From: a virus
IMG/VR virus record: IMGVR_UViG_3300045996_003284
Location: 1-64,000 of that record
Strand: one strand, 5' to 3'
Length of the DNA: 64,000 nt
Shown here: one piece after another, positions 1 to 64,000 of the stretch
Layout: the number at the start of each line of letters is the position of its first letter
Position numbering within the stretch: position 1 is the stretch's first letter
The notes under the pieces: generated by a model
Databases searched by the model: none
What the model saw: only the letters and a program-made list of their open reading frames with translations
Told to the model about the DNA's origin: nothing
Program-made: the position numbers and the translations under genes

Positions 1-930
1 CCGGTGTCCCTGTACCTGTCGATGCCCGCCTCGGACGAAGACGTTCTAATCGTGCTGCTGAGGCTGATGATGACCCAGTTCCTTAAGGTCAACATGCGCC
101 ATCTGGACACCGACAACCGAGGCCGTCCGAAGCGGCATGATTGCCTCATTGTGGCCGATGAATTTCCGGCACTGAAGAAGATGAAGATCTATGAATTGCT
201 GATGAAGCGATTTGCCCAGTACCGGATCAAGAGCTTCAAGACCGTCCAGTCGTTTAACGACATCATTGCTTCATACGGGCGGGACAACACGATCCTCGAT
301 AATTGCTTCATTACCGTCAGCTTCGCGTCGGCGGACGAGACGACACAGAAAAAATTATCCGGCATGCTCGGCAAGGATACCGAGTACCGAACGGCGGAAA
401 ATTTCCAGGGCAGCCGGTTCGGTTTCATGTTGAACAACAAATCGGTGATTACGCATGAGGTGCATCGCGAGATCGTTGACCAAGGCGGTGTGCGCGAGCT
501 GGACCCGGACCATGAATATGTGCTGGTCACCGGGTTCCCAAAGTTCAAAGCCGAAAAGGTCAAATATGACCAGGAGATCGTTTTCCAGCAACGCCTTCTG
601 CCGGCGGCGGAAGTGGGTGACGGTCTGGGACACTATCCCGACCTGCCCGGCAAGGTCGAGATCGAATGGCTTGGCATGCGCGCCACTTGCCCACCACGAC
701 GGGAGACGGCGGATCACAAAAAGACTTCTGATGATTCTCCTCCAGCCAAGGGTAGATCACGCAGGAAAGCGGCCAAGTCCACTGACGACATGATGCTGCC
801 TTTGAACTGGCCGGAGAATGGCGAACCAAGCGCGCCAACTGTGACAGTGCCCCAGGTCTTGGTAGCGGGGGCGGAGCCGAGGAAGCCGCGTCGAAAGAGA
901 ACGCTGGTGATTGAAGGAGATAGACCATGA
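1..930 (+). CDS. virD4: Type IV coupling protein TraG/VirD4, C-terminal part (5' truncated by window edge)
   Basis: Walker B LIVADEFPAL, VQSFNDI..YG..NTILDNC, LSGMLG..TE motifs of the TraG-D C-terminal domain; lies directly upstream of RHH-trbB. Confidence 0.9.
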   Translation, partial: PVSLYLSMPASDEDVLIVLLRLMMTQFLKVNMRHLDTDNRGRPKRHDCLIVADEFPALKKMKIYELLMKRFAQYRIKSFKTVQSFNDIIASYGRDNTILDNCFITVSFASADETTQKKLSGMLGKDTEYRTAENFQGSRFGFMLNNKSVITHEVHREIVDQGGVRELDPDHEYVLVTGFPKFKAEKVKYDQEIVFQQRLLPAAEVGDGLGHYPDLPGKVEIEWLGMRATCPPRRETADHKKTSDDSPPAKGRSRRKAAKSTDDMMLPLNWPENGEPSAPTVTVPQVLVAGAEPRKPRRKRTLVIEGDRP

Positions 931-1304
931 TACGACAGAAAGCCGGGATTCCGAAAGCCCGCTGCGAAGTTCGGCTCCCGTTAGATCTCGACAAGAAAGT
1001 GGAAAAGATCGCCCTATCGTCGGGTGTGACCAAGACCGCCGTCATGATCGCTGCTGCGGAACGGCTGGTTTACGGAGAAGAGACGGCAACAGGTGTTGAT
1101 GCCTTACACGAGCGCATGGCGGGTCTGGTAATCGCGGTGGAGGATCTTCAGTCCAACATGCTTGAGGTGCGCAGCTACTTGGATGCCTTGGCGCAAAAGC
1201 TCTGCACTGGACGAAATGATGCAGAAAGAGCCGCTGAGTTTGACCGGTTCCTTGCCGGTGTCGAGAAGGTAAAAGCCGAACTTATGATGGAGAGCACACA
1301 ATGA
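927..1304 (+). CDS. Ribbon-helix-helix (CopG-like) protein of the traG-trbB junction
   Basis: N-terminal beta strand plus two helices (EVRLPLDLDKKVEKIALSSGVTKTAVMIAA); ATGA overlaps with both neighbours. Confidence 0.7.
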   Translation: MIRQKAGIPKARCEVRLPLDLDKKVEKIALSSGVTKTAVMIAAAERLVYGEETATGVDALHERMAGLVIAVEDLQSNMLEVRSYLDALAQKLCTGRNDAERAAEFDRFLAGVEKVKAELMMESTQ

Positions 1305-2263
1305 AGAACTCAGAACTTTCGTTTAACCGCACCCTGGCTGCCTATCGGCGCGCCCTTGGACCGACCATACGGGAGGCCATGGACGATCCGAACGTCGTCG
1401 AAGTGATGCTGAACCCCGACGGACGGATCTGGGTTGACCAGCTTGTCGGCGGCCGGCGGTTCACGGGCGACATGATGACGCCGGAGGATGCGCTCCAGGT
1501 AATCGATCTGGTTGCGGATCATGTTGAGGAAATCGGCATTGGTTGGAACCGGCCGCTGCTGTCGGCCGACTTGCCGGAGACCGGGGAGCGGTTTCAGGCC
1601 GTCTTGCCGCCGGTTTCCGACGCGCCCTGCTTCACCATCCGAAAAAAGCCGCCCGTGATTTTCACGCTGGCAGATTATGTGCGCGACGGGATCATGACGC
1701 CTCGGCAGGCGGAGATCCTGGAGAATGCCATCGACCGGCGCGTCAACATCATGGTTGGTGGCGGAACGGGCAGCGGAAAGACGACCCTGTTGAACGCTTT
1801 GCTGGCCTTGCCGGGCTTCAAGCGGCATCGCGTCCTGATGGGGCAGGACCGGAACGAGTTGCAATGCAGCGCGGATGATCTGGTGTCGTTGCTGGCGCGC
1901 GAGATAGACCCGGTAATTACCATACACGACATTATCAAGGCGTCGATGCGACTCAGGCCAGACCGTATTGTGATCGGCGAAGTGCGCGAAGGAGCACCGG
2001 GTCTGGCGATGCTCAAAGCGTGGAACACGGGTCACCCCGGCGGCCTGGGGACCCTCCACGCCGACAGCGCGGCAGAAATCTTTGACCGTCTGGAAGAGCT
2101 GATCGGGGAAGTGACCGCCCGTCCGATGCACCGGTTAATCATGCGGGCCGTGAAGATGGCGGTGTTCATCGAGCGGCTGGAAGACGGCAGTCGACGGGTA
2201 ACCGAGATTGTACGGCCCGTCGGGTACTCGAATGGGATGTTTGAGATTGACCCTATCAAATAA
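1301..2263 (+). CDS. trbB: Conjugal transfer ATPase TrbB (VirB11)
   Basis: EVMLNPDGRIWVD, Walker A GGTGSGKTT, MRLRPDRIVIGEVR, WNTGHPGGLGTLHA. Confidence 0.95.
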   Translation: MKNSELSFNRTLAAYRRALGPTIREAMDDPNVVEVMLNPDGRIWVDQLVGGRRFTGDMMTPEDALQVIDLVADHVEEIGIGWNRPLLSADLPETGERFQAVLPPVSDAPCFTIRKKPPVIFTLADYVRDGIMTPRQAEILENAIDRRVNIMVGGGTGSGKTTLLNALLALPGFKRHRVLMGQDRNELQCSADDLVSLLAREIDPVITIHDIIKASMRLRPDRIVIGEVREGAPGLAMLKAWNTGHPGGLGTLHADSAAEIFDRLEELIGEVTARPMHRLIMRAVKMAVFIERLEDGSRRVTEIVRPVGYSNGMFEIDPIK

Positions 2264-2351
2264 CGACGAGCCTATGGATGTCGCGGATTAAATGTGATAT
2301 TAAATCTGACTGTGACGCTTAATCTCACAGATCAACACAACGGAGGCCATA

Positions 2352-2672
2352 ATGAAGTTTCGAAAGTGCGGCGGCGTTGCCAAAACTCTGTTCCTGGCCA
2401 CTGTCGCGGTATTGGCATCCGGTCCCGCCTTCGCGGCCGGGGGGGCCATGCCCTGGGATAATCCGCTTAGTCAGATTACGGCCTCGATTACGGGTCCCGT
2501 CGCCGGCTCGTTCATCGCGATTGCTATTATTGCAAGCGGGCTGACCATGGCCTTCGCGGCGGGTCAGGGCATGCGAACCTTCGCCGGCGTCGTGTTTGCC
2601 GGCAGCATTGTCGGCATCGGCTTGCTTTTCTTCATGGGAATGTTCGGCTTGACGGCCGGGGCGGTGTTCTGA
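2352..2672 (+). CDS. trbC: Major pilin TrbC (VirB2)
   Basis: Signal peptide, MPWDNPLSQITASITGPVA motif, two hydrophobic helices, C-terminal GAVF; GGAGG RBS. Confidence 0.93.
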   Translation: MKFRKCGGVAKTLFLATVAVLASGPAFAAGGAMPWDNPLSQITASITGPVAGSFIAIAIIASGLTMAFAAGQGMRTFAGVVFAGSIVGIGLLFFMGMFGLTAGAVF

Positions 2673-2794
2673 TGGAAATCGATCCGATGGAGAGGCGGCC
2701 GCCGGTCACAAGCATCAACCACAAACCCGTCATTCTGATGGTGACGGCAATTGCACTTCTGCTCCTGATCATCGTCATGCTGGCGGTGTCCTGA
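2672..2794 (+). CDS. 40-aa single-TM microprotein (MEIDPMERRPPVTSINHKPVILMVTAIALLLLIIVMLAVS), not in ORF track
   Basis: ATG overlaps trbC stop (TGATG); stop ends 1 nt before trbD ATG; fills the gap exactly; hydrophobic C-half. Confidence 0.65.
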   Translation: MEIDPMERRPPVTSINHKPVILMVTAIALLLLIIVMLAVS

Positions 2795-2795
2795 T

Positions 2796-3062
2796 ATGGC
2801 GGGTGACGTTCCAGGGTTCCAAATCCCGATGCACCGGAGTCTTCTGAAACCGGTGACCATCAAAGGGGTGGCGCGCGTGCCCGCCATCCTGATCGGGGTC
2901 GTCGGAGCGCTTCTGATCTTCAGCCTGCACAAGGTGACCGGCGGGGTGATCATCAGCGTGGGGCTCTGGGTCGTCGCCCGACACCTCACGGAAATGGATC
3001 CGCACATGTTCGACTTTATGGTCCGTCGGGCGCGGTCGCGCTTGCCGTTCCTCGGGGGCTAA
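2796..3062 (+). CDS. trbD: TrbD (VirB3)
   Basis: PGFQIPMHRSLLKPVTIKGVAR, two TM segments, ...EMDPHMFD; lies before trbE. Confidence 0.9.
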   Translation: MAGDVPGFQIPMHRSLLKPVTIKGVARVPAILIGVVGALLIFSLHKVTGGVIISVGLWVVARHLTEMDPHMFDFMVRRARSRLPFLGG

Positions 3063-3064
3063 GC

Positions 3065-5557
3065 ATGCTCAATCTGAAAGAATTCCGGGACGCGCCAAAA
3101 TCCCTAGCCGATTTTCTGCCTTATGCGGCGATGCCGTTCGATCAGTACCCGTTCGTGATGGCGCTGAAGGACGGCGGCTTGCTGGCAGCGATCCGGTATC
3201 AGGGACCGGACCTGGAAAGCACCTCAACGCAAGCGTTGGTGAACTACTATTCCAACCTTGGCACGATGCTCAAACACTTGGGAGACGGATGGGCCGTCCA
3301 CCTGATCGCTGACCGCTTCTACACGACCGATTACCCGGAGGCTGACTGGCCGTGCTGGGCGGCGTACCTGTTCGACCGGGAGCGTAGGGCACTCGTTCAG
3401 CAAGGCGACTGGCGGCAACTGGAGAGCGACTATATTTTGGCTCTGACCTATCTTCCCCCCGGTGACGCGACGGGGCGGTTGGAGCGTATGCTGATCGAGG
3501 GCGAGGACGGTGAGAAGATCGACGCCGGCCTTGAATATGTCGATTTCTTCGCCCGGCGTGTCGTTGAAACCGCAGACCTTATGAAAGCCTACATGCCGCA
3601 GGCCAAGGTTCTGACGCCGAACGAGTTGTTGACTGTCCTTCACCACCCCCTGTCGCTGGAACGGCAGCAAGTCGATCTTCCGGAAGTTCCTATGTTTTTG
3701 GATTGCCTTCTGGCCCACGAACCTGTGTGGCCGGGCATGCGGGTCGGCATCGGCTATACCGAGGATGCCAACGGCAACGCGCGTCCACAGGAGTATGTAA
3801 TCACCGTCGGCGTCCGAGGCTATCCCGCCAGCACCCACGCTGGCATGCTCGATGATCTGAACAGCCTTGGCTTCCCATACCGCTGGTCAACCCGCGCCAT
3901 CACGCTGGGCGCTGAGCAATCTCTGCGAGCCGTGCAGACTCGCGTCAACAGGTGGGGGTCACAACGGAAGGGTTTGATGGCGCTGGTCGCCGAGCACATC
4001 ACCAAGGAGCCGACCGAACGGCTCAATGAGGAAGCCGTGGCGCTCCATGCCGACAGCAAAGAAGCCCTCCGAGAGGTCGCTGAGGGTCTGGTCTGCATGG
4101 CGTACATCACACCGACGATCACGGTGTCCGATCCCGACCTTGAAACGGCCAAGGAGAAGGCAAAGAAGGTTGTTGGCCTGCTCAAAGCCAAGCATTTCGC
4201 CGCCTATGTCGAGACATTCAACGCCTTCGAAGCGTGGCTGGGAAGTCTCGCCGGAAGTTGCTACGCGAACGTTCGCCAACCTCTCGTCAACACGATGAAC
4301 TTGGTTCACTTGGCACCGCTGTCCGGGGTCTGGGCGGGTGAGTCGTGGAATCAACACCTGAAGGGACCGGCGTTGATGCGGGCTCTCACCGATGGAAATA
4401 CGCCGTTTCATTTCAACCTCCACCACGACGACGTCGGGCATGCTTTAATCGTCGGACCGACCGGCTCCGGTAAATCCGTATTGCTGGGGACCGTGTCGAT
4501 TCAGTTCCTACGCTATCCCGGCGCTCGGGTTTTCGCGTTCGACAAGGACAGGAGCATCCGGATCGCTACCCTGTGCGTCGGTGGCAAGTTCCACGATGTC
4601 GGGGCTCAGGATGACGGCGTTGGCCGTCAACCGCTGCGCTATATCGACCAGCCGGATGAGCTGACCTGGGCGACGGAATGGATCTACGACCTGATGGTCA
4701 AGGCCAACGTAGCCCTGACAACCGACCAGAAGAACCACATTGCCGAAAAGCTGGCCTCCCTGGCATCGAGCCCGCCGGAGGAGCGGACCTTGACCGTGTT
4801 GCGCGCCCGCCTGGGCGATAAGACTCTCAAGGATGCTCTGAAGCCGTTCACCCTGGGTGGCGTTTTTGGCCACCTGTTGGACGGTGACCACGACGACTTC
4901 AGCGTCACGCGGTGGCAGGCGTTCGAGATGGGCCGGCTTCTGGGGCAACCCAGCGCGTGCATTCCCGTGATGACCTACCTGTTTCATCGGATCGAACAAA
5001 CCCTGTCTGAGAACGATGATTCCCCCACTCTGCTGATCATCGATGAAGGCTGGCGGTTCCTGGACGACACCACCTTCGCGGGTCAGATCGCCGATTGGCT
5101 GCTGACCCTCAGAAAAAAGAACGTGAGCGTCATTTTCACGACGCAGACGATCAGCTCGATCTCGGAAAGCCGGATTGCGCCCATCATCCGCGACAATTGC
5201 CTGACGCGAATTTATCTCCCCAATGCCGGCGCCACAGACGAAGACACCGCGCCGTATTACCAGGGTCTGGGTCTGAACAATCAGCAAATCCGCCTGATTG
5301 CGAAGGCTCGTCGGAAACGGCAATACTATTATACGTCCGATGATGGCAATAGGATGTTCGAGTTGGGCCTTGTCGATCTCGGGCTTCTCTTGGTTGGGTC
5401 CAGCGACAAGACTGACCATGCACTGGCAGACAACATTCTTGAGCGGTACGGGGAAGAACGGTTCTTCGAGCAATTCCTACGGGCCAGGGGGTACCACTGG
5501 GCAGCGGATTTGGTGTCAGGCAAAATAACCGACACCGTGGCAGTCGCCGCAGAATAG
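3065..5557 (+). CDS. trbE: Conjugal transfer ATPase TrbE (VirB4)
   Basis: MLNLKEFR..P..LADFLPYA start, DVGHALIVGPTGSGKSVLL Walker A, LLIIDEGW Walker B, WLLTLRKKNVSVIFTTQ. Confidence 0.96.
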   Translation: MLNLKEFRDAPKSLADFLPYAAMPFDQYPFVMALKDGGLLAAIRYQGPDLESTSTQALVNYYSNLGTMLKHLGDGWAVHLIADRFYTTDYPEADWPCWAAYLFDRERRALVQQGDWRQLESDYILALTYLPPGDATGRLERMLIEGEDGEKIDAGLEYVDFFARRVVETADLMKAYMPQAKVLTPNELLTVLHHPLSLERQQVDLPEVPMFLDCLLAHEPVWPGMRVGIGYTEDANGNARPQEYVITVGVRGYPASTHAGMLDDLNSLGFPYRWSTRAITLGAEQSLRAVQTRVNRWGSQRKGLMALVAEHITKEPTERLNEEAVALHADSKEALREVAEGLVCMAYITPTITVSDPDLETAKEKAKKVVGLLKAKHFAAYVETFNAFEAWLGSLAGSCYANVRQPLVNTMNLVHLAPLSGVWAGESWNQHLKGPALMRALTDGNTPFHFNLHHDDVGHALIVGPTGSGKSVLLGTVSIQFLRYPGARVFAFDKDRSIRIATLCVGGKFHDVGAQDDGVGRQPLRYIDQPDELTWATEWIYDLMVKANVALTTDQKNHIAEKLASLASSPPEERTLTVLRARLGDKTLKDALKPFTLGGVFGHLLDGDHDDFSVTRWQAFEMGRLLGQPSACIPVMTYLFHRIEQTLSENDDSPTLLIIDEGWRFLDDTTFAGQIADWLLTLRKKNVSVIFTTQTISSISESRIAPIIRDNCLTRIYLPNAGATDEDTAPYYQGLGLNNQQIRLIAKARRKRQYYYTSDDGNRMFELGLVDLGLLLVGSSDKTDHALADNILERYGEERFFEQFLRARGYHWAADLVSGKITDTVAVAAE

Positions 5558-5565
5558 GAGCCCCA

Positions 5566-7479
5566 ATGACCCGCAAAACAATTCTCGCGGCTGCGTTCCT
5601 GATCCTGTCGTCATCCACGTCCTTCGCGGCCATCAACGCCGCCGATTACGGAGTCAGCGCGTCTAACGGTGACAACGCGGCCGCCTTACAGCGTGCTTTC
5701 GATGCGGCTGGGCCGGGCGAGGAAGTGATCATTCCGAATGGGAGAATCGCCTACGGTCGCCAACTCAGGATTGACAGCGCGCGGGTGCGGGGCTCCGGGG
5801 GCACCGTTCTGGCACCGTCCAACCCGGCCAATCAAAGGATCTTCATGACCGGCAACGGGCCATCGATTTCCAACATGCGAATCGATTATCATCCCATCCA
5901 CCGCAACGGCTCAGAAACCGGGCGAGCCGGAATTTGGGTACAGGAAGCTAGGAACTTCAACGTCAGCGGCATCGTTCAGGACGGCGCAGCCTACGGCGTT
6001 CCGGCAACGCGGGGGATGGGAGGGAGCGGCATCTTCGTGCACCGATCCCAGGGCGGCACCATCCGGAATAATACGATCAGCTACACAAAAGCGGATAGCA
6101 TTCACATTACGAACGGGACCTCTGATGTCGAGGTGACCGGAAATCGGATTGTGGGCAGTGGTGATGACGGAATTGCGACGGTGGACTACGGCGGCGGTGT
6201 CCGAAACATCCGGATCGACGGCAACACGGTCCTCGATAATCGCTGGGGGCGCGGCATCACTGCGGTAGGGTCTTCGGATGTCCGAATCACCAACAATTTT
6301 ATCGACGGCAACCGCACCGACGGTGCGGGCGTGTATATCGCATCCGAACGCGGCTGGGGCATCGGCGCCCCTCGGAACATCCTGGTTCAGGGCAACACCA
6401 TTCAGGATACCGGCGGTCGCGGCAAGGGCCATGGTCAGATCATGGTGGCGAACGGCGGCGGCGCGCCGTCGAACATCCGCATCCAGGATAACGAGGTTCG
6501 GAATTCCAAAACCCCACAGCATGCTGTCGTGCTAAGCGGGAGCATGAACAACGTCACTCTGGAAGGTAACACCATCGACGGCGAGATCGTCCGCCGCAAC
6601 GGGGGCAGCTTCACGGGCAGCGGAAACACCACCAACGACCCTAGGATGAACAACCCCGCACCGGTTCCTGAGGGAACACCGCCGCCCATGGGTGGCGGTG
6701 GCGGCGGTGACTGGGGTGGCGAGCCGGACGGTGAGGGAGAGGAAGCTGTTAACAACGTCATCTCCAACGCCGGAAATTTTACGGGGGCGTGCTCCGGGAC
6801 GACCGGCCTGTCCAGCGCCATCTCGGCGGGCGCGGGCATCGCGTCGATTGCCAGTGGGGGACGCGCCACCGCTGCGCTTCAGATCGCCCAGCAAGCCCAA
6901 CTTATTGCCCAGCGGATCTGTCAAACGGAGCAGTTGATGACCATGCTGGAGAACCTGAAGAAGACGCCGCTCAACACGGCCGGGGCGATCCAGTCCGCCA
7001 TGGCCCAGCTTCGGTCGATGCTGGGAACGACAGACGCAACGATCTACAACCAAGCTGCGGCGATGCGTGCCTATGGCGAATTGTACCCAAATGACATGTC
7101 GGACATGACGATCGAAGAGGTTCTTGGCAAGACGCAGGAATGGCGTGAAGTCGCCCATGAAGCGGTTCAGGAGTCTTGGCGGGTTCAGTCAGCGGCCGTT
7201 CAGGCACAGGAAGCCTCTTCGGCGCGCGTTGGTCAGCAACTCGCTGCCGTTCAGACAGCCCCCGGCATGCTGGCGGCACAGCAGGCGACGGCGCAACTGA
7301 TCGGAAGCCTGATCGGCGATACACAGGCCATGCAGACCGTAACGATGTCCCACTTCCGGGCCGTTGAGAACCAGATCGCAAAAAGTGAGGCCAAGACGCT
7401 GCAAGCCGAAGAACTGCACCGCCGGGCTATGGAAAATTTGGGTGCGAATAGTACAGTTGAGGTCATGAGCCCCTACTAA
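5566..7479 (+). CDS. trbJ: TrbJ (VirB5) fused to an N-terminal right-handed parallel beta-helix (pectin-lyase fold) domain
   Basis: Signal peptide; aa ~22-355 beta-helix (ADYGVS...DNAAALQRAFDAA, ADSIH, SGDD, GRGIT); Pro/Gly linker; C-terminal helical TrbJ-like region (MLENLKKTP, YGELYP, QTAPGMLAAQQATAQL); lies between trbE and trbL. Confidence 0.85.
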   Translation: MTRKTILAAAFLILSSSTSFAAINAADYGVSASNGDNAAALQRAFDAAGPGEEVIIPNGRIAYGRQLRIDSARVRGSGGTVLAPSNPANQRIFMTGNGPSISNMRIDYHPIHRNGSETGRAGIWVQEARNFNVSGIVQDGAAYGVPATRGMGGSGIFVHRSQGGTIRNNTISYTKADSIHITNGTSDVEVTGNRIVGSGDDGIATVDYGGGVRNIRIDGNTVLDNRWGRGITAVGSSDVRITNNFIDGNRTDGAGVYIASERGWGIGAPRNILVQGNTIQDTGGRGKGHGQIMVANGGGAPSNIRIQDNEVRNSKTPQHAVVLSGSMNNVTLEGNTIDGEIVRRNGGSFTGSGNTTNDPRMNNPAPVPEGTPPPMGGGGGGDWGGEPDGEGEEAVNNVISNAGNFTGACSGTTGLSSAISAGAGIASIASGGRATAALQIAQQAQLIAQRICQTEQLMTMLENLKKTPLNTAGAIQSAMAQLRSMLGTTDATIYNQAAAMRAYGELYPNDMSDMTIEEVLGKTQEWREVAHEAVQESWRVQSAAVQAQEASSARVGQQLAAVQTAPGMLAAQQATAQLIGSLIGDTQAMQTVTMSHFRAVENQIAKSEAKTLQAEELHRRAMENLGANSTVEVMSPY

Positions 7480-7496
7480 AACAAAGGAGAAGTCAA

Positions 7497-7679
7497 ATGA
7501 TGCACGCCGCGCTGACCCCGAAAGCCATTATCATCGTCCTGCTGTTCGGTGGCTTTGTTTTGATTGACCGCAGTTGCTCAATGGAAGATCCGACCGTGAA
7601 GGTGGGTCAGGAGCGGCACAAGGCGGCCATGAAGGACCTTGGCAAGAACACCTATCACCACGTCCAAAGCCCGTATTAA
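7497..7679 (+). CDS. trbK: TrbK-like entry exclusion protein
   Basis: 60 aa, N-terminal hydrophobic segment, AAGGAG RBS, lies between trbJ and trbL; C-terminus mirrors the TrbJ C-terminus (H..AM..LG.N....V.SPY). Confidence 0.7.
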   Translation: MMHAALTPKAIIIVLLFGGFVLIDRSCSMEDPTVKVGQERHKAAMKDLGKNTYHHVQSPY

Positions 7680-7692
7680 TCAGGAGCAGACT

Positions 7693-9645: not shown

Positions 9646-9647
9646 AA

Positions 9648-10415: not shown

Positions 10416-10465
10416 CAAGTATCTCGTAATGTGATAGTTTATACTAGAAATAAGCCGAGGATAGT

Positions 10466-55144: not shown

Positions 55145-55150
55145 TGCCGC

Positions 55151-55579: not shown

Positions 55580-56051
55580 TGTCAGGGGCCACGTTCAGAG
55601 CGCGGGCCGCGGCGACATCGAGATGATGGACCCGCGTTAGACCGATTTCCTCGGCCCGGCTGATCTGGGTATCCCCCAGCGCGACCATGTCATCACGCTG
55701 TTGTTCGGTCATGGCGCCGGCGACAACCATGGTCGAGAGCAAATTGAACACGGCGGTGGCGATCTCCGGATCGTTCATTCGGATGGTGTCGAACGAATTG
55801 GGCGCCAGGGTTTGCAGAATGGTGATGGCCGATCCCCGGAGGATCGGGTCCTCCGAGGCGGTGACGGCCTGGATGCGCGGCCACAGGCCCTTGAGCAACA
55901 CGTGGCTGCGAACTTCCGAGGCCGACACTGCCCTCTTGCCGGGGCGGGTTGGGGCGTTGAGGGTATCAGCCACGGCGCTGTCGGCCATCTCGGCATAGCC
56001 GAGGTTAAGCGGATCGGAGTCTATCTCCGCCGCGAGGGTTTCCAGATCCAC
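55572..56051 (-). CDS. Hypothetical phage structural protein
   Basis: GTG after AAAGGA; LAAEIDSDPLNLGY..M.D..VA..LN ... ISRAEEIGL. Confidence 0.65.
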   Translation of the reverse strand: MDLETLAAEIDSDPLNLGYAEMADSAVADTLNAPTRPGKRAVSASEVRSHVLLKGLWPRIQAVTASEDPILRGSAITILQTLAPNSFDTIRMNDPEIATAVFNLLSTMVVAGAMTEQQRDDMVALGDTQISRAEEIGLTRVHHLDVAAARALNVAPDNG

Positions 56052-56082
56052 GGGAACGGTTCCTTTCGATGCTCGGGATGTA

Positions 56083-56556
56083 TCAGAGGGATTGGCCCAG
56101 TCGGCGGATGGGCAAGCCGATGGTGCGCTCGAAGATTTGGCCGTCCATGGCGTTGACCGTGCAGAGCAGGGTGTGGATTTCGCCAGGGGGCTCCCATCCC
56201 GGATGGTTGCGTTCATCTTCGTCGATCTGGAACCAGACCGTGATGTTGGTCATGTCGTTGGTGATGCCGTAGATCCGCAAACCGGCAGCGACGGCGAGCG
56301 GCAACAGGACGAGGCTGACCGAGGCGATCCGGTTGGAGATCCCGTCCATTTCGACGGAGCAGTCAATGGTGTAGTTCTTCAATTCGTTGGGGTCGAGCGG
56401 GTTGGTCCAGGTCACTGTGCCGGTGCCGTTGCCGAAGTTGACGGTCCGCCAACTTGGCGCCAAGGCATGGCTGATGGCTCCTATATCACCATCGAGCAGC
56501 AGTTTGCCGTTTCCCACCAGCAACAGGTAACTGCCGTTTGCAAGAACTAAGGCCAC
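56083..56556 (-). CDS. Fibre adaptor-like protein
   Basis: LDPNELKNYTIDCS, C.V....GQIFERTI.L.IR; GTG start. Confidence 0.65.
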   Translation of the reverse strand: MALVLANGSYLLLVGNGKLLLDGDIGAISHALAPSWRTVNFGNGTGTVTWTNPLDPNELKNYTIDCSVEMDGISNRIASVSLVLLPLAVAAGLRIYGITNDMTNITVWFQIDEDERNHPGWEPPGEIHTLLCTVNAMDGQIFERTIGLPIRRLGQSL

Positions 56557-56641
56557 GGCGAATCCCCCGTGTCGAACAAAAAGTGTAAACGGCAACCGTT
56601 AGAAGATCGGTGAACGCTCCTCAGTCTGATTTAGGGTGCGA

Positions 56642-59218
56642 TCAAGAACTAGTCGGCGGGTCGGAGGAAACCGGCCCCGTCTCGACGAGGTCAATACCGG
56701 GCACGTAGGTCAACCCAACCTTTGCCGCTGGCACGAAATCACCATCGGGGGGCGAACCCTCGCAGACAAAGCCTTCCCAGTCGCGCGCGGGGTCATTCAA
56801 CAAAGGCCAGCCGGCGGTGGGCTGGTCGCTGTTGAAAGGGTCGGGCGCGCGGACAGCGGCGAACACAGGGCCGAAATCCGGGTTGGTGCCGGCGCGACTG
56901 TTGGGCCAGACTCCATGGGCTTCGATCTTCTGCGTTGAACTGACGCTACCCCACACGTTATCGAGATCAATGGGATACCCATTGGCCTCAAAATCAGCGG
57001 CCTTGTTCAGGAAGTGATAGAAAGCGAACGCGCTGCCGGGGTCAGTTCGAACAACATTGATGTTGCGCAGCAGAAGCCCTGTCATGCCACCGTTGATTTC
57101 GGCCGGAACGTAGAAGCCCCGCGTGCCGATACCAACGCTACCGGTCAAATTGTGAATCCGCACTGACCCGGCACGTCCCGTGCCGGCGGTGCCGGTTGAG
57201 AAGATGGTTCCCCGGATACCTTTGTCCGATCCCGTCACGTTGACCAAGCGGCAGTTCTGCAGGGTGATATCAGTTTTGGCCGAACCCGCGTGGACGAGAA
57301 CGGCATGACCCTGGGAAATCGACGCGTTGTCAACCAGAACCCCTTCGAGATAGACCGCGCCGCAGTCTCGAAAATAGAGACTGGCATCGCCGGAAGACGC
57401 CACCGCCGACGGTTTGAAAGCGCCGCCGATCACCGTAACCGACGCGGCTCCATCGAAGAATAGACCCGCGTCCGTATCGACACTGGCCTTTGGGATGACG
57501 CGAATGTGTTTGCCAACGACATCGTCACCGGCAAAGGTTCGACGCGAGTCCTTGTCGAGATGGACTGTCCAGTCGAATGCTGTTCGCGCAGGCCAGGGGA
57601 GCGAAACCGGGTTATCGGGAACTTTAACGGTTGAGTCAACAATCGTAACAACACAGGTCTCGTTCGAAAGCGTGCAGTTGGTGGGGGATGACAGAACCAA
57701 ACGGACGGTTTCGTTTTTTTCGACCAAAGAGTCAGCCGTGGTCTGAAGGGTGACGGTTTGAGTTTCCTGATCTTTCGCGAACTTCAGCACCGTGGGCGGG
57801 ATCGCGGTAAAATCCCCTGGGGTAGCGGTGCCGGGGGACGTCGCGACCGTAACCGAGCAGGCGCCAGTTCCCGATTTGGTCACTGTTATGGTTGTCGAAT
57901 CGCCTTCGGTTACTGTGACGCTATCCGGCAGATAGACCAGGGGGTCTGCTTCAGACTGAACGCCATCCGCCGTCCATGTGGTGTTGCACCCAACGCGCTG
58001 GGCGGCAATGGTGCGGTTTGCCGCCCCACCCAAGGCTTTGTTGCCAGGATAATCCGAAACGGGTAAATTCCCACTGTTGGCATCAGGACCACTGGTTGGC
58101 GCAACTAAGCCAACGGGGGGCTTTGACCAAGAAACCGCCCCTGCGGCGCAATGGTAGAACTTGTTTCTCTTGGCTGTTACACCGCGAACAGCGGACCCAC
58201 CAAGCGTTTCAAGACCCCACCGTTTGGATTCAAAAACCTGATTGTCGATAACTTGAATGCTCTTCGAAAGTTGATTTGCGTGGGTGCCAGTATTGCCAAC
58301 AATAAGAATTGCCGCATGCCTTGTGGTTTTATCATGTTCTTCTTTCAACACCTGAGTCAACTGGCCGCTACCGCCGGCCCGATAAACCGTATTGTTCTTA
58401 ACAAGAGTATCCTGATTGCCGGCTGACCACCAATTGGGCTCAGACGCGACCAAAATACCGGCGCGTTCGTTTCCGCCACCCTCGACGAAGTTGCCAAGAA
58501 CGGTGAGGCCCTTCGTTCCAATCCCAGTAATACCGCGCCCACCCCGGTTGCCACCAACATAGTTGTACCGGCTGACGCAGTCCTGGATAAAGTTGTAACC
58601 GTAGCCAACAAAGGCAGTGCAATCGTCCCCGCTTTGCCAAATATAGTTATACTCGACAATAGTATTGCGCGACGGGTAGGTTGAGCGGGATGTCGTGGTA
58701 TGAATCGAATCGGCGACCGTGTACATGATCGTATTTCGGGCAATATACCCATTGGTAGAGCCCTGAACAAAGATGCCACCGATGTTCTTTAAGCTATTCT
58801 TCTTGTTGTCGCCCTCAATCCAGATGTGCGTGATCCGAAAATTGCGTGTTCCGTAGCGAACGCGCACGCCCGACTTTTCTGGAGGGGCTCCACCATCGAT
58901 TTGCCGGGTCTGGGGCCAACTGTGCACGCGCATTTTCGTGAGTTCCGGACCAACGCCTTTCAATTCGATCGAGCGAGCGCGGCGGTCCGTCGCGTACAGC
59001 ATCGTCACCGGGCCATCCCCCGGCTTGCCATTGACTCCGGAAACCTTGATGCTGTCGATCGTGAGAACGGAGCTATGGTTATAGGTCCCGGCCGGAATCA
59101 GGACGCTATGCCCACCCGCCTTGGCCGCGTTGAAGCAGGCTTGCAGGGCCTTCTGGTCGTCAGCCTTTCCGTCCCCCTTCGCATTCCAGGGAGCGTTTTT
59201 GGGATTCAGGACAGCCAT
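56642..59218 (-). CDS. Beta-helix glycoside hydrolase/lyase-like protein plus Calx-beta and second beta-helix
   Basis: AKGDGKADDQKALQACFNAA..VLIPAGTY, ADSIH, SGDD, GRGIT; VTVTEGD...TSPGTAT.GDF..LKFAKDQ..D..VE.NET Calx-beta; AGGAG RBS. Confidence 0.85.
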   Translation of the reverse strand: MAVLNPKNAPWNAKGDGKADDQKALQACFNAAKAGGHSVLIPAGTYNHSSVLTIDSIKVSGVNGKPGDGPVTMLYATDRRARSIELKGVGPELTKMRVHSWPQTRQIDGGAPPEKSGVRVRYGTRNFRITHIWIEGDNKKNSLKNIGGIFVQGSTNGYIARNTIMYTVADSIHTTTSRSTYPSRNTIVEYNYIWQSGDDCTAFVGYGYNFIQDCVSRYNYVGGNRGGRGITGIGTKGLTVLGNFVEGGGNERAGILVASEPNWWSAGNQDTLVKNNTVYRAGGSGQLTQVLKEEHDKTTRHAAILIVGNTGTHANQLSKSIQVIDNQVFESKRWGLETLGGSAVRGVTAKRNKFYHCAAGAVSWSKPPVGLVAPTSGPDANSGNLPVSDYPGNKALGGAANRTIAAQRVGCNTTWTADGVQSEADPLVYLPDSVTVTEGDSTTITVTKSGTGACSVTVATSPGTATPGDFTAIPPTVLKFAKDQETQTVTLQTTADSLVEKNETVRLVLSSPTNCTLSNETCVVTIVDSTVKVPDNPVSLPWPARTAFDWTVHLDKDSRRTFAGDDVVGKHIRVIPKASVDTDAGLFFDGAASVTVIGGAFKPSAVASSGDASLYFRDCGAVYLEGVLVDNASISQGHAVLVHAGSAKTDITLQNCRLVNVTGSDKGIRGTIFSTGTAGTGRAGSVRIHNLTGSVGIGTRGFYVPAEINGGMTGLLLRNINVVRTDPGSAFAFYHFLNKAADFEANGYPIDLDNVWGSVSSTQKIEAHGVWPNSRAGTNPDFGPVFAAVRAPDPFNSDQPTAGWPLLNDPARDWEGFVCEGSPPDGDFVPAAKVGLTYVPGIDLVETGPVSSDPPTSS

Positions 59219-59255
59219 CTGCAAACTCCTATGAGTTGGCTTAAAGCGTGATCTC

Positions 59256-59289
59256 AAAAAAAAGACCGCCCAGGCAACTGAGCGGTCTT
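59256..59289 (-). terminator. Intrinsic terminator after RTX gene
   Basis: AAGACCGCTCAG-loop-CTGGGCGGTCTTTTTTTT. Confidence 0.85.
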
Positions 59290-59316
59290 CAACGGCGATG
59301 CTTTGTCGCTAGAAAG

Positions 59317-60330
59317 TTAAACAACCCACCAGTCGCCCAGTCCAACCGCATTGACGTCCAGGATATGGAGCACATGACCATCGTTGTCGGTGCTGGTATA
59401 GGTCGTGATGCCGTCATGCTCGACGGCTGTCGTCGTCATCTGTCCTTCGCCGCCCCGGAACGACAGAGTGTCGATACCGTCCCCTGGGCCGTCGGTGATG
59501 GAATCGAAGTCCGTGATGACGTCGTGACCCATCGGCAATTCGTTTGGATGATTCGGGTCGAACGCGAGGAAGTCGAAGACGAAGTCGTTGCCCCCACCCG
59601 AGTCACCGCCACCGGTGAAGGTCTCACTGCCCTTCCCGGCGATAAACATATCATCCGGCGAGCTGCCGATCACGGTGTTATCGCTGTCGCCGCCGTGATA
59701 GATGAGAGAAACCGGTTCGCTGCTGCCCTCAGTCGTGATCACGTTGGTGCCGGTGAAGACGAGCCTGACCTCGGACTCCCCCGTATCAAAATTCTGGGTG
59801 GTGAGATGCCCCTTGCTTTCCCCGGTGATCCAGACCTCAGGGTTTCTGCCAATGTCAAAGGCCAGGGTGTCCCGGCCGGCATTGCCGTCGAACCGGCTGG
59901 TACCATAGTACACCTCGTCATGGATTCCGCCGATGAAGAAGGTGTCATCCCCAGTACCGCCGCGCGCGGTGTCCTTACCACCGTTGCCGAATAGGGAATC
60001 GTTTCCGGCTCCGCCGTTGAGAAAATCGTCGCCGCCGCTCCCGAGCAGGAAATCCTGGCCGGCATCGCCGTACAGCTTCAAGGGGCCGCCACTGTAAAGA
60101 CCCCAGAGCGTGTCGTCGCCGCGTCCGCCCCAGGCACTGTCACGCCCGCCCTCGGCGAGGTCGATGAAATCGTCACCGTCCTGCCCGTAGATCTTGTTGT
60201 TGCCGTCACTACCCTCAATGTGGTCGTCGCCGGCACCGCCATAGGCGTTTGACTTCCCCGACAAGTAGATATTATCGTCGGATTTGGTGCCGTGTACGGT
60301 AGCGTTTTTCTTGCCGTGGATGGTCGCCAT
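59317..60330 (-). CDS. RTX/hemolysin-type Ca2+-binding repeat protein
   Basis: Multiple GGxGxDxL nonapeptides (GGAGDDHIE, GGRGDDTLW, GGAGNDSLF, GGTGDDTFF); GHDVITDF; no signal peptide. Confidence 0.88.
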   Translation of the reverse strand: MATIHGKKNATVHGTKSDDNIYLSGKSNAYGGAGDDHIEGSDGNNKIYGQDGDDFIDLAEGGRDSAWGGRGDDTLWGLYSGGPLKLYGDAGQDFLLGSGGDDFLNGGAGNDSLFGNGGKDTARGGTGDDTFFIGGIHDEVYYGTSRFDGNAGRDTLAFDIGRNPEVWITGESKGHLTTQNFDTGESEVRLVFTGTNVITTEGSSEPVSLIYHGGDSDNTVIGSSPDDMFIAGKGSETFTGGGDSGGGNDFVFDFLAFDPNHPNELPMGHDVITDFDSITDGPGDGIDTLSFRGGEGQMTTTAVEHDGITTYTSTDNDGHVLHILDVNAVGLGDWWVV

Positions 60331-60459
60331 GGAGTCCCCCAAAAATCTTTATTGATTGGTGACAAGGGCGTTCATCTTACCGGATTGCGTCTAAAAAAGA
60401 ATTATACTGAACGGTGTTTATACGAAAGATAACATGACTTGTGTTGTTTCTGCACAGGT

Positions 60460-63453
60460 TTAACGCGGCACGATGGTCTTGCCGCGGACGTCATAGCCGC
60501 TGCCGGGGAAAGCATCCTTGCGGGACAGAAGATTGTTGCGGGCAAGTCGAATGCGGGCATCGTCGGGCGCCACGAACCATTGGTGAAAGTCTAGGGCTGA
60601 AATCACATGGACAAAGTAGCTGTTGGCGTCGGGCTGAAATTGGCTCGCCGACCGGAACGTGTGGCCTGGAACCCCAAACAGGGAGTTCACGATGCAATTG
60701 CCATTGATATTGACACCCCCCGTGTTGAAGGTCACGGGAGGCCCGCCGGGTGAAAGCGCAAGTTTTATTGTGTTAGAGGATGCCTGAACCGAATAGTAAA
60801 GGTTGCCGATCGTTAACCCGGCCGGAATTTTAGTCCGGTCTATGAACCTAAGATAGTTGTTTGGATCCGTAATGCCCGTCGGTGTGATCACCCAACCATT
60901 TTGTGCCGCGGTCGTATCCCACCCAGGACTCGTGAGGGCGATGGTTTGATTGTCTGTCCTGTAGGTACAGGCTAGGTTGATATTACTCCATTGTCCCGGC
61001 GTCCAAGGACGGCGGTCTTGCAAAGTGGCGCCCCCACCTTCGCTGCTGATCAGAACATCGATCACGGTTGCTTTGTAAGGGTCGCATTTTAGACTATAGT
61101 ACTTCGGGTCGGTATCATTGTGAAACCCCCCGGCCAGGACCATCGGAACATAACTCCACCACTCCGCCTGCTGCTTGATGTCCGGGTCCTCACAGAGGCC
61201 GTAAGCAACCGAAAGCGCATCAACACCAAAATTATGCATCCAGGTTGCGTAACCGCCATGAGCCGTTCCGTTCTCTTTTAGGTGGGTGTCCAGATAGCGC
61301 CGGCCGTCGAGGACGTTGTTGCCATTCTGGCCGCCGGCGATGCGCCAGAATCCGGACTGGTAAGGTTGGATTCGATCGATCTCAACCCAATGCTCTTTAT
61401 ACGCTTTAACCAGTTTGTAGTTTGCGTCCGCTGGGTTTCCCATCGCGAAAGCATGCAGGATGCAACGCGCGTTGTGCGAGACGGCGCGGACCTGACCCAA
61501 CGCATTCATGCCACCGCACGGCGTGCTCAGCCAGTCAATGGTCATGCAGCGGCCGTGATTGGGTTCTGTGAAGACCCCCGGCAGGGTTGCCTCCATGTAC
61601 AGGGCGTCCAGGAAGTGCTGGTCGCCCTCGCTCAGGTAGGTCCAGAGATTGATCTGCGGGAAGTGCGCGGCGTCCAGATTGGTGATGCCGGTTTCCTGCA
61701 CGACCCCGTTGATGACCCCCGGATTCATCTCAATGCCATTGGCTTTTTGCACGATGGCTGGAGGATCAGCGGTGGTCCAGATGCTCGGTCCGAACAGCGC
61801 GGAATCCGGATTGCGGGTGGGCGGCAGGTAGCAAAGGATCTTGCGGGTCGTCCGGTTGTAGCCCTGACCGTGCATAGCGCCCATACCCCAGGCCGTTACC
61901 CGCATGGCCTGCTCGTGGTTGGCGAGTTGGGCCGCGGTGGCGCGGGCATGAGCGGCGATGCACCGGGCGTGCGGCTTGCTGGTGCCCCACGTGATCATCT
62001 CAGCATCGCCGACATCGGACTGGTTGTGGCGCAAGAGACCGCGCCGCATCGGGGCGTAGCCGGGAGGCGTGGTGATCAGCGTGCTGAATGCCGGATTGTT
62101 GACATCCAAAGGCGCGAACATCCGGCTTTCGATGCCATACGGAACGTTGTGGCGGTACACCAGTTTCGGCGGGTTATGAACTTGGTTGGCTTGAAGATCG
62201 AACCAGTCCATTTTTCCTTCAGAACCGACCGAGGCGATGAAGCACCCCTTGGATGACCTGACGTTCGTCCAGGCTCCGTTTCCATTGGTGACGCCGCGCA
62301 GGGTTGTGGCGTTGACTCGGACATCGGCGCTGAACTGGATGCCCTGCTGATCGGCCTCGACGTTGGTCTGCCACCCATAGATCGTCTTGAACAGAAACTG
62401 AATGCGCTTGGGGTTGTCGGGGGTGCCGCCCCAGGCGCGCAGGTAGAGCCAGCAGCCGAAATGGGGGTCCTTAGTCGTGGTGGTGCCCAGCGTGGCCATA
62501 TCGGAGATGCGCCACTCGGTGCAGACGGGACCGGACATGACCGGTTCGAACCATGCGCTGTTCGAGGCGGCGACCATGTTGGCCAGTTTGAAGGTCTTCA
62601 GTCCTTTCTCGGCGGTCAGCACATTCGTATGGGTCCGACCCTTCCACGACGTGAAAGCGAACTCAATGGCGACTTTGGAGGCGAGCGGGGTCGGAGAGGT
62701 ATGGATGCCGGTGTCCTGGGCCGTCCAGGTGCCGGCTTGGCGCTGCCAGATGATATCCTTACCGGTTCCCGCCGCGATCACGGGCATCAGCCACCGGGCC
62801 TGTGCGTGCTTCAGCGAGCCATCGGGCCAATAAGTCCGGTTGCTGAGCTGGCAGGGTATCCGATTGCCATCAACGGCCGCGTGGACGATGGTGCCGGTCG
62901 GCACGTGTCCTTTCTTGAAGACGACGCCAGCGTGCATTTCCTGACTGGCCAGACTGGGCACCGTGTCGTAGTTCTCAACGCGCGCGGTATAAAGGTTCTC
63001 GATCGTGGGGCTGCTGACGGCGGTAACGCGCAGCGTGATGGTGAAGACCTGATCGAAGTTGCCGACCTGCAAAGTCACGGTGTGGGTGGCCGTACCCCCC
63101 AGCGCGGTCAAGCCGACGACCAGCCGGTACCCGGTCGGCCATGAACCCTGGAGCGCCACCCTTCCACCCGCATCCGAGGTCAGGACCACGTCGTAGCCGG
63201 TGAATTCCGGTACCGGCGGCCCCCATTCGTCCGTGAAGTCGTCGGTGAATTCGGTTCCGGGAACCGGAGCCGCGATGGGGAACCCGACAAAGACTAGATC
63301 GGCAAGCTTGGTTCCGGCTGTCAAGTTGCCGAGCACATCAATCGCTAGGGGTTCGACCCGGCGTTCGGGCACAACGATGACGCCCGGACGGCGCAGCAGA
63401 CCGCCGCCGGGGCCGAGAACCAGGCCACCGTCGGGAGAGCGCAGGAGACCCAT
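60460..63453 (-). CDS. Large fibre-associated protein with putative polysaccharide-lyase-like (PcRGLX/YetA-like) module
   Basis: Cadherin/Ig-like N-domain; GVVFKKGHVP....IPCQ....WPDGSLK motif; DAAHFP...YL.EGD.HFLD. Confidence 0.55.
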   Translation of the reverse strand: MGLLRSPDGGLVLGPGGGLLRRPGVIVVPERRVEPLAIDVLGNLTAGTKLADLVFVGFPIAAPVPGTEFTDDFTDEWGPPVPEFTGYDVVLTSDAGGRVALQGSWPTGYRLVVGLTALGGTATHTVTLQVGNFDQVFTITLRVTAVSSPTIENLYTARVENYDTVPSLASQEMHAGVVFKKGHVPTGTIVHAAVDGNRIPCQLSNRTYWPDGSLKHAQARWLMPVIAAGTGKDIIWQRQAGTWTAQDTGIHTSPTPLASKVAIEFAFTSWKGRTHTNVLTAEKGLKTFKLANMVAASNSAWFEPVMSGPVCTEWRISDMATLGTTTTKDPHFGCWLYLRAWGGTPDNPKRIQFLFKTIYGWQTNVEADQQGIQFSADVRVNATTLRGVTNGNGAWTNVRSSKGCFIASVGSEGKMDWFDLQANQVHNPPKLVYRHNVPYGIESRMFAPLDVNNPAFSTLITTPPGYAPMRRGLLRHNQSDVGDAEMITWGTSKPHARCIAAHARATAAQLANHEQAMRVTAWGMGAMHGQGYNRTTRKILCYLPPTRNPDSALFGPSIWTTADPPAIVQKANGIEMNPGVINGVVQETGITNLDAAHFPQINLWTYLSEGDQHFLDALYMEATLPGVFTEPNHGRCMTIDWLSTPCGGMNALGQVRAVSHNARCILHAFAMGNPADANYKLVKAYKEHWVEIDRIQPYQSGFWRIAGGQNGNNVLDGRRYLDTHLKENGTAHGGYATWMHNFGVDALSVAYGLCEDPDIKQQAEWWSYVPMVLAGGFHNDTDPKYYSLKCDPYKATVIDVLISSEGGGATLQDRRPWTPGQWSNINLACTYRTDNQTIALTSPGWDTTAAQNGWVITPTGITDPNNYLRFIDRTKIPAGLTIGNLYYSVQASSNTIKLALSPGGPPVTFNTGGVNINGNCIVNSLFGVPGHTFRSASQFQPDANSYFVHVISALDFHQWFVAPDDARIRLARNNLLSRKDAFPGSGYDVRGKTIVPR

Positions 63454-63457
63454 GGTG

Positions 63458-64000
63458 TCAGACCTCGCTACCGATCAGGGTGACTTGGAGTCCCTTGGCG
63501 CTCGCTCCGGCAACATCGACGTCGAAAGTCACGATACCTCCCTTGGTCAGCGTCCCGGTCACGAAGGCGGTGCTGGACGCAACGGCGCCGGCGGCGGCGA
63601 TCGTGACCGGAGCGCTCAGGACGGTTGACCCGTTGAGGTTGACATCGACAGTCGTGACCGTGGTACCGGAAGCCGGCAGGTACATCTCGACGGCGGCCAG
63701 TTTGAGGGCGATTGGCATGCGCAGGGCGCGCACCCCGACGCCGACCGTGACAGTGGTCGTCTCAGCGAACAGCGGCACGACGATGGCGCGGGTGTTCTTG
63801 ACCAGGACCGCGTCGCCCGAGGCGTTAAATCCCACCACCTGCCCCTCGGTGCCGGTGATCTCGTTGGTGCTGGCGTAGGTGTCAATGGCGTCACGGGTGC
63901 GAACCGGACTCATGTAGGTCGTGGAACTGACCCCGGCTTGGGCTTCCGCCTGGGTGGCAAAGGTGCCGCCGCCACCGCCACCGCCCCCCTGAGCTGACAT
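63458..64000 (-). CDS. Fibre-type structural protein (may be 5' truncated)
   Basis: ATQAEAQAG....YMSP.RT..AI fibre repeat; C-terminal beta-sandwich. Confidence 0.65.
   Translation of the reverse strand: MSAQGGGGGGGGTFATQAEAQAGVSSTTYMSPVRTRDAIDTYASTNEITGTEGQVVGFNASGDAVLVKNTRAIVVPLFAETTTVTVGVGVRALRMPIALKLAAVEMYLPASGTTVTTVDVNLNGSTVLSAPVTIAAAGAVASSTAFVTGTLTKGGIVTFDVDVAGASAKGLQVTLIGSEV

Follow-up and report, generated by a model that had tools for sequence, protein, structure and literature searches.

The window analysed in this study is the whole stretch of 64,000 nucleotides that corresponds to bases 1-64000 of the incomplete soil viral contig IMGVR_UViG_3300045996_003284 (hereafter G000; 74,247 bp, linear), and it joins the genes of a plasmid-type conjugation system to the late genes of a large siphovirus. 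The conjugation genes are intact, the two halves are alike in base composition and their linkage is conserved in related phages. The explanation that we regard as best, and to which we give about an even chance of being correct, is that of an integral hybrid, i.e., a phage lineage in which the lysis cassette is followed by a conjugation module that can be exchanged. Both halves would then belong to one heritable unit, for which either route of transfer, by mating or by virion, would work. All coordinates are window positions unless they are marked as contig positions, and gene functions throughout were inferred from sequence.

In the proposed hybrid, the window would represent one end of a large mobile element of soil alphaproteobacteria that resemble Azospirillaceae. 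A temperate siphovirus with a mosaic of lambda- and SPP1-type genes would carry, directly downstream of its lysis cassette, a plasmid-type conjugation module that is predicted to consist of a relaxase (expected just off the contig), the coupling protein TraG, the Trb system for mating-pair formation (MPF-T), the peptidase TraF and an accessory protein of the ribbon-helix-helix (RHH) type, and that would be transcribed towards the phage late operon. The post-lysis locus would serve as a cargo slot in which members of the clade hold different conjugation modules, and recombination with resident plasmids is the probable means by which these modules were exchanged. In its quiescent state, the element would spread by pilus-mediated conjugation from an origin of transfer (oriT) near the relaxase or RHH genes, and after induction the same DNA would be packaged into virions. 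A broader version, which we consider rather unlikely, holds that all members of this clade of large temperate siphoviruses from soil alphaproteobacteria are bimodal, i.e., form virions and also conjugate with their own relaxase and type IV secretion system (T4SS), with a swappable post-lysis cassette and a TrbJ head that is perhaps tuned to those glycans of the host surface to which the virion spikes are also tuned.

Recurrence of the join in related phages

On the + strand, positions 1-16107 encode an intact P-type Trb (MPF-T) T4SS in which, according to Pfam and NCBIfam, all frames are uninterrupted, and the late region on the - strand is that of a lambda-like siphovirus with genes for lysis, fibres, gpJ-K-L-M, tape measure, tail tube and appendages. 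An earlier reading made from the DNA letters alone (the sequence-only reading) had proposed that intact virD4, trbB-I and traF genes are contiguous with a large siphovirus, which these analyses confirmed. It had also placed the convergence of the two halves at ~16.1-16.5 kb. The T4SS operon indeed stops at 16107, but the lysis cassette ends at 18860 with the endolysin gene (its spanin-like lipoprotein gene is at 17464), and ~2.7 kb of small genes lie between them, namely a DUF3102-like gene, two genes of RHH type and ORFans. At this junction, no tyrosine integrase (PF00589), insertion sequence (IS), tRNA, Rfam RNA or housekeeping gene was found, and the only repeats resembling attachment (att) sites were short ones of chance level, with the far ends beyond view. 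These results agree with the sequence-only reading, which had noted no integrase, IS, tRNA, att-like repeat or host housekeeping gene between the two halves. Neither a tRNA nor an Rfam family was detected anywhere in the window, nor was an integrase or att site found that would mark off a separate integrative and conjugative element (ICE).

The join was found in four lineages represented by six contigs (G000, G006, L118, L119, L120, and G010; GC 58-74%), and conjugation genes follow the lysis cassette in all four of the lineages that could be read past it. Because every related contig that can be followed past the lysis genes has conjugation genes there, the link of phage to conjugation genes looks stable. 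Its presence in four diverged lineages argues against chance adjacency or misassembly, and given that the same join occurs in independent assemblies, a misassembly at the junction, against which the sequence-only reading had cautioned, is very unlikely. Contigs were compared with one another by BLAST at the level of open reading frames (ORFs); raw tblastx gave only noise in this high-GC DNA.

An endolysin search of IMG/VR identified G006 (IMGVR_UViG_3300046706_000011; 90.5 kb, GC 71%, CheckV completeness 88%). On its + strand, a relaxase-like gene and the genes for VirD4, VirB11, VirB4, VirB6, VirB8, VirB9, and VirB10 converge on a lipoprotein gene and an endolysin gene, with a gap of <300 bp at the junction. 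The identity between the T4SS proteins of G006 and G000 is 31% for VirB11, 28% for VirB4, 27% for VirB6, and 25% for VirB10. In the phage half, the endolysin (58%), gpJ (51%), and tail tube (64%) are shared, and so are the fibre, tape measure and appendage genes. The protein encoded upstream of VirD4 in G006 has 691 aa, and its homologues carry PF11843 and PF03432; it is therefore predicted to be a VirD2-type relaxase. The end of the G006 contig holds only the first part of the capsid gene. The 22 kb on the far side of its T4SS contain a DnaB helicase, ORFans, SNase, pentapeptide proteins and an IS607-like insertion, and no housekeeping, Rep or Par family was recognised by Pfam among the ORFs scanned there. 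The insertion (L110:6964-9950) has a low GC content (55%), includes a serine resolvase and TnpB/OrfB_IS605, and separates the DnaB helicase region from the ORFan block. When DnaB and the leftmost gene of G006 were used as bait for the terminase end, unrelated phages with identities of ≤47% or nothing was retrieved, and the circle was not closed.

A metagenome scan with the endolysin alignment revealed L118 and L119, two short contigs closely akin to G006 in which the joint is likewise convergent. In L120 (9.6 kb, GC 74%, endolysin identity 54-62%), VirB9-like and VirB10-like genes and an RHH gene of the G006 type converge on the lysis cassette. A scan with the fibre gene at 25196-26662 led to G007, G008, G009, and G010, which form the structurally closest lineage (capsid 73%, gpJ 60%, tail tube 78%, and endolysin 42% identical to those of G000). 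A coupling-protein gene (PF02534, E 1.4e-78) converges on the lysis cassette in G010 (24 kb). The G007 record (143 kb, classed as 'provirus', 91%) stops 3.2 kb past the endolysin gene, just short of the position of the coupling-protein gene in G010, and contains no VirB4. Neither G007 nor G009, which ends ~1.7 kb past its endolysin gene, was counted in the test of the join. Just past the endolysin gene of G007 (140843-142638 of that record) are genes for a tailspike-like beta-helix protein of 427 aa and for a protein of 171 aa, both of which are absent there in G010, and this difference suggests that the post-lysis locus is a variable cargo site.

The operon is closed by a gene for an RHH and coiled-coil protein in three lineages (G000, G006, and L120; hhalign E 3.9e-5), for which tblastn gave no match in the T4SS regions of pSR-1 and pTT6-3, the Skermanella plasmids described below. 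Searches of IMG/VR with TrbE, and with a TrbE/VirB4 alignment whose patterns were poorly chosen, returned only G006 itself. The endolysin alignment matched the species genomes of GTDB only at a spurious stretch of 28 residues in a metagenome-assembled genome of Saccharibacteria, and megablast of both halves against PLSDB and INPHARED gave no match. No tyrosine integrase (PF00589) was detected in G000 (74 kb), G006 (90 kb), or G007 (143 kb). The Pfam/PHROG annotation of G007 covered the record beyond 1-47 kb. Homologues of gpJ lie on contigs of 114-209 kb. CheckV completeness across the relatives implies lengths of 68 to 157 kb, which were not used as an estimate of genome size.

Origin of the conjugation modules and competing explanations

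From VirD4 to TraF, the T4SS of G000 shows complete synteny, at identities of 51-82%, with a cluster on plasmid pSR-1 of Skermanella rosea, a 613-kb megaplasmid in which metabolic genes, not phage genes, follow the T4SS. TrbE is 72% identical to that of pSR-1 and ≤43% identical to that of every other plasmid. The T4SS of G006 is 34-47% identical to a cluster on pTT6-3 of Skermanella sp. TT6, which is followed by RepA-ParA-DUF3102, with repABC nearby. The pSR-1 gene directly upstream of VirD4 is homologous to that for the G006 relaxase (35% identity, E 3e-29) and the two share the motif HxDTxxPHAHxLxRGR. No relaxase was found on the G000 contig, on which the expected site upstream of traG falls beyond base 1, and because of the homology between the pSR-1 and G006 genes, the relaxase gene of G000 probably lies just beyond that base. 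The conjugation modules of L120 and G010 differ again. Thus, at least four conjugation modules occupy one locus of the phage clade. The flanking genes on the conjugation side also vary among the lineages, the RHH and coiled-coil gene excepted, and these differences in modules and flanks make a single conserved attB unlikely.

The G000 contig contains no N, and its GC content is even (57-63%). In tetranucleotide composition, the correlation (r) of its T4SS to the two phage halves of the same contig is 0.93 and 0.90, that between the phage halves is 0.94, and that of its T4SS to the orthologous pSR-1 T4SS is only 0.80. The GC contents are 58.7% for the G000 T4SS, 60-61% for the phage halves, and 67% for the pSR-1 T4SS. 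The composition of G006 behaves likewise. Identical short pieces of both halves, at a similar depth of 2-5x, were found in three soil metagenomes from three studies; the matching Logan contigs are 150-370 bp long, none of them bridges 16-19 kb and several bins are without cover. Shared composition and co-occurrence exclude a chimera and a very recent arrival of the module, but they do not separate membership of the same element from residence in the same host. The sequence-only reading had proposed one replicon with dual transmission. The juxtaposition is real, compositionally seamless and recurrent, but a closed contig, rep/par genes and an on-contig relaxase were not found. In the rest of the linear 74,247-bp contig, to which that reading had looked for further phage and plasmid genes, there is a major capsid gene of the SPP1 gp13 type (contig 71432-72424, - strand; Pfam) but neither a relaxase gene nor a terminal repeat.

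In favor of an integral hybrid, the join is kept across deep divergence while module and flanks change, which is not easily explained by site-specific prophage insertion. Integrase, tRNA and att were not found on contigs of up to 143 kb, the joint in G006 is tight, and a predicted relaxase exists in the lineage, i.e., in G006. Several points weigh against it. The relaxase, terminase and portal genes are off the G000 contig. No contig is circular or complete (CheckV completeness 63% for G000 and 88% for G006), ParA/ParB (PF02195, PF13614) were not found in G000 or G006, and Pfam scans of these two incomplete contigs revealed no Rep family. The conjugation proteins of G000 and G006 are 25-31% identical and the phage proteins 35-76%; given that the former are far more diverged than the latter, the two halves have different histories. 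Moreover, orthologous T4SS modules are found on Skermanella megaplasmids without an adjoining phage. G007 carries the class 'provirus', and gpJ homologues of the ~60% tier lie on contigs of 207-209 kb, so that a larger conjugative replicon may harbour the phage; and the capsid would need to accommodate a hybrid of 100-165 kb.

A serious alternative, although one with clearly less than an even chance, is that a temperate siphovirus lies inside or beside a conjugative plasmid, megaplasmid or ICE of its host, in which case the Trb genes would belong to the host element and the phage would be at most passively carried on conjugation. Prophages usually end at the lysis cassette, and a boundary is thus expected here. 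Consistent with such an arrangement are the syntenic pSR-1 T4SS, which is 51-82% identical without a phage, the match of the G006 T4SS to pTT6-3, with RepA-ParA-DUF3102 and repABC nearby, and the 'provirus' record of G007, which stops just before the coupling-protein site of G010. The similar gpJ genes on contigs of up to 209 kb and the discordant divergence of T4SS and phage proteins are also consistent with it. In addition, tandems of phages and ICEs that formed by accretion have been documented in seven phyla (Huang et al., Sci Adv 2026, PMC13651849). Against this alternative, four modules with different flanks abut the same phage end, for which site-specific integration would need the same target each time. 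Three contigs, of which 74-143 kb are available, showed neither a tyrosine integrase nor a tRNA or att-like repeat, and the ORFs that were scanned past the G006 T4SS, over 22 kb, yielded no Rep, Par or housekeeping family. Furthermore, the composition of the T4SS fits that of the phage, not that of the orthologous plasmid. Given the lack of a closed contig, the phage-free T4SS of Skermanella, the provirus call and the contigs of ≤209 kb, this alternative nevertheless retains a fair probability.

It is improbable that the phage-borne T4SS does not move the phage itself but serves another role, such as pili or adhesion, delivery of proteins or DNA, plasmid mobilisation or surface modification, with the beta-helix head of the TrbJ-like protein as what might be a tip that cuts or binds glycans. 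Neither a relaxase nor an oriT can be seen on the G000 contig, and the variable head in the TrbJ slot points to recognition of surfaces or targets, both of which would suit such a role. A coupling protein is, however, present in G000, the predicted VirD2-type relaxase is encoded directly upstream of the coupling protein in G006 and pSR-1, and the proteins recognised by NCBIfam are an ordinary P-type conjugation set. An assembly chimera of two unrelated soil replicons is hardly credible: although G000 is a metagenome contig and no Logan contig bridges 16-19 kb, the same join occurs in independent assemblies from other samples at 40-60% protein divergence, and the two halves share their composition and both co-occur in three studies.

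Gene content of the two halves and the junction

All genes of the conjugation half are on the + strand. The first encodes the TraG/VirD4 coupling protein (1-930; PF02534 E 1.5e-21, TraG-D_C; 64% identical to that of pSR-1), of which the contig start leaves the C-terminal 309 aa. A 125-aa small gene between traG and trbB (927-1304) has no Pfam match and is 51% identical to its pSR-1 equivalent. It is followed by the genes for the TrbB/VirB11 ATPase (1301-2263; TIGR02782 325 bits versus an equivalog cut-off of 304.55; 82% to pSR-1), the TrbC pilin (2352-2672; PF04956), TrbD/VirB3 (2796-3062; PF05101), and the TrbE/VirB4 ATPase (3065-5557; NF010447 899.8 bits, E 1e-270; 72% to pSR-1 and 28% to G006 VirB4). 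After a gene in the TrbJ slot (5566-7479) come those for TrbL/VirB6 (7639-9645; PF04610 and NCBIfam), TrbF/VirB8 (9648-10415), TrbG/VirB9 (10466-11461), and TrbI/VirB10 (11472-12680), the last three recognised by the Pfam set PF04335/PF03524/PF03743 (TrbF/G/I) and by NCBIfam. TrbL, TrbF, TrbG, and TrbI are 68-81% identical to their pSR-1 counterparts (TrbF/G/I alone, 70-81%). In NCBIfam, TrbB and TrbL exceed their equivalog cut-offs and TrbF is 0.5 bit under its own.

A conserved 140-aa gene (from 12670; 69% to pSR-1) precedes that for TraF, the S26 pilin-maturation peptidase (13182-13790; PF10502, TIGR02771; 55% to pSR-1). The location of traF after trbI had been taken as unusual, but the same order is found in pSR-1, the nearest plasmid relative. 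The homology with pSR-1 stops after TraF (13790). Two lineage-specific genes, which encode an acidic protein of 141 aa and a protein of 336 aa (13854-15574), have no Pfam or PHROG match and are absent from pSR-1. The last gene of the operon (15577-16107), for the RHH and coiled-coil protein, had been described as mobC-like; the gene is present, but Pfam identifies its product as NikA-like (PF21983, E 5e-6). This protein is a candidate relaxosome accessory factor.

The 637-aa protein in the TrbJ slot is a fusion of a right-handed beta-helix (aa ~36-340; PF13229 E 5e-28) with a TrbJ/VirB5-like domain (aa 435-624), the match of the latter to TrbJ models being weak but clear (E 1.4e-12). We noticed that the C-terminal TrbJ domain is kept (55% to pSR-1) and that the N-terminal head is exchangeable: G000 has a beta-helix, pSR-1 an unrelated head of ~450 aa, and pTT6-3 a 647-aa protein annotated as 'right-handed beta-helix'. 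Relatives of the G000 head are found in >10 metagenome clusters at 56-65% identity, most of them of similar length; two are annotated as conjugation proteins, one is joined to TrbL, and a close relative of the fusion is present on a 46-kb contig. The possibility that the beta-helix was copied from the phage spike at 56642-59257 (33%, E 4e-25), which would have been proof of unity of the two halves, was rejected because other metagenomic heads are closer (56-65%) and the pSR-1 head on a conserved TrbJ tail is unrelated. As judged from these comparisons, the head does not derive from the phage spike but is an interchangeable module that belongs to a common family. In the 668-aa TrbL, the match to TrbL models and pSR-1 is confined to the first ~280-420 aa; the C-terminal ~250 aa are thus regarded as a variable extension.

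Between the two halves, an intergenic inverted repeat of 17 bp with a 36-nt loop (16372-16441) is a candidate terminator or oriT-like hairpin. It is followed by the gene for a 208-aa DUF3102-like protein (16512-17138, -), which is 41% identical to the product of the DUF3102 gene after ParA on Skermanella pTT6-3, and by that for a 167-aa lipoprotein (17464-17967, -), which is spanin-like or exclusion-like and conserved beside the endolysin in G006, L118, L119, and L120. A 48-aa RHH gene, as judged from its translation (17964-18110, -), overlaps the start of the lipoprotein gene, and two small ORFs lie at 18278-18826 (+). The lipoprotein gene is located directly after the endolysin gene in G006, L118, and L119, whereas in G000 three small genes, i.e., the 48-aa RHH gene and the two + strand ORFs, intervene.

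The genes of the phage half are on the - strand. The endolysin gene (18860-19630; phrog_873 E 3e-47; 58% to the G006 endolysin) is accompanied by two small genes (19696-20184 and 20192-20497), homologues of which also adjoin the endolysin gene at this position in G006, L119, and L120; their sole family match is a weak one to PF11166/DUF2951 (E 0.006), which is below the cut-off. Genes for distal fibres or spikes with beta-helix, Calx-beta and LamG domains (20553-27189; Pfam) are syntenic in G006 and G007. Pfam further identified a lambda-type tail tip (27614-35042) with gpJ (27614-32503; PF24801 and PF13550), a gpI-like protein, gpK (NlpC/P60 and JAB), gpL, and gpM. The order gpM-gpL-gpK-gpI-gpJ after the tape measure is the lambda tail-tip order (PF05939, PF05100, NlpC/P60 and JAB, PF24801 and PF13550). 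The tape measure gene (1678 aa) and the chaperone-region genes lie within 35046-43425, with the tail tube gene at 41312-41731 and the tail terminator gene at 43021-43425 (all Pfam).

Neck genes and a large appendage locus (44329-64000; beta-helix, LamG, Calx-beta, RTX and ~1000-aa proteins; Pfam) are syntenic in G001-G008, and a head completion gene lies at 53138-53431 (Pfam). Between the neck and capsid genes is a ~25-kb locus for giant proteins (44943-64000 and on to contig 70 kb), among them two paralogue-like proteins of ~1000 aa, a protein with a SASA esterase domain, and RTX, LamG and beta-helix proteins. This locus is kept at 44-52% identity in G001-G008 and is thus a feature of the clade, not cargo of G000. 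The portal and terminase genes, which are off the G000 contig, are present in the relatives G001 and G007. The large terminase of the closest relatives has Hint/intein domains (G001, L084:5955-10043, 1362 aa; G007, 71825-74935 of its record), and a gene for an RRXRR-HNH endonuclease adjoins the intein-bearing terminase gene.

Relation to known elements and implications

The relaxase type with PF11843 and PF03432 and the traG-trb gene order are typical of ICEs of the Tn4371 family. G000 is similar to Tn4371-family and other alphaproteobacterial ICEs in its order traG-small gene-trbBCDEJLFGI, and the homologues of the G006 relaxase carry both of these domains. It differs from them in that no tyrosine integrase or ParA was found, nor an ICE-type RepA in the part scanned, in that TraF follows trbI, and in that the module abuts a phage. 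The pSR-1 cluster (NZ_CP086112.1, 326-341 kb) matches G000 in its order VirD4, small gene, TrbB-C-D-E, long TrbJ-slot protein, TrbL-F-G-I, small gene, and TraF, and it has a relaxase-like gene before VirD4, at a position that in G000 is beyond base 1. In contrast to G000, it has no phage after TraF, an unrelated TrbJ head, a GC content of 67% versus 59%, and none of the genes at 13.8-16.1 kb.

The phage-plasmids P1, N15, and SSU5 and the 115-119-kb alphaproteobacterial group (Shinella NZ_CP132310.1 and pLM21S1) are, like the element proposed here, large temperate tailed phages with plasmid-type genes, but G000 has a full T4SS and no rep/par genes were found in it. The circular RepC-type phage-plasmids (115-119 kb) known from Shinella, Sinorhizobium (pLM21S1), Methylobacterium, and Rhizobium encode gpJ, gpK, and gpL with 33-38% identity to those of G000. 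A close relationship to the Shinella-type phage-plasmids of 117 kb was, however, rejected, as the tail-tip module alone is in common. In Escherichia coli, p1002-1 has been described as a conjugative phage-plasmid that unites a phage-plasmid and a conjugative plasmid in one replicon (bioRxiv 10.1101/2025.03.14.643293). While p1002-1 is a single replicon, the join described here is conserved in a diverged clade with swapped modules. In the phage-ICE tandems, one DNA molecule holds a prophage next to a conjugative element, and the two are co-transferable in principle; such tandems form by accretion that is site-specific and involves integrases and att sites, and their authors call them not hybrid (Huang et al., Sci Adv 2026, PMC13651849). 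In contrast, no tyrosine integrase or att site was found here on 74-143 kb, and the join is kept across a diverged clade in which the module changes. According to a 2025 review, no phage-T4SS hybrid was known. What is new here is a siphovirus clade in which the join is conserved while the conjugation modules are exchangeable, and its tie to Skermanella plasmids.

If a phage lineage stably keeps a mating apparatus, it would have a lysis-free contact route with a potentially broader host range, in addition to a long-distance particle route, and the main division by which mobile elements are classified would blur. Classifiers of viruses and plasmids would be affected, given that such contigs would be cut or mislabelled (compare the end of the G007 provirus record), and so would models of soil gene flow and the inference of host range from virome data. 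Even if the phage is a nested prophage, it would be an unexplained regularity that a single phage clade is repeatedly paired with conjugation modules, of which there are four different ones.

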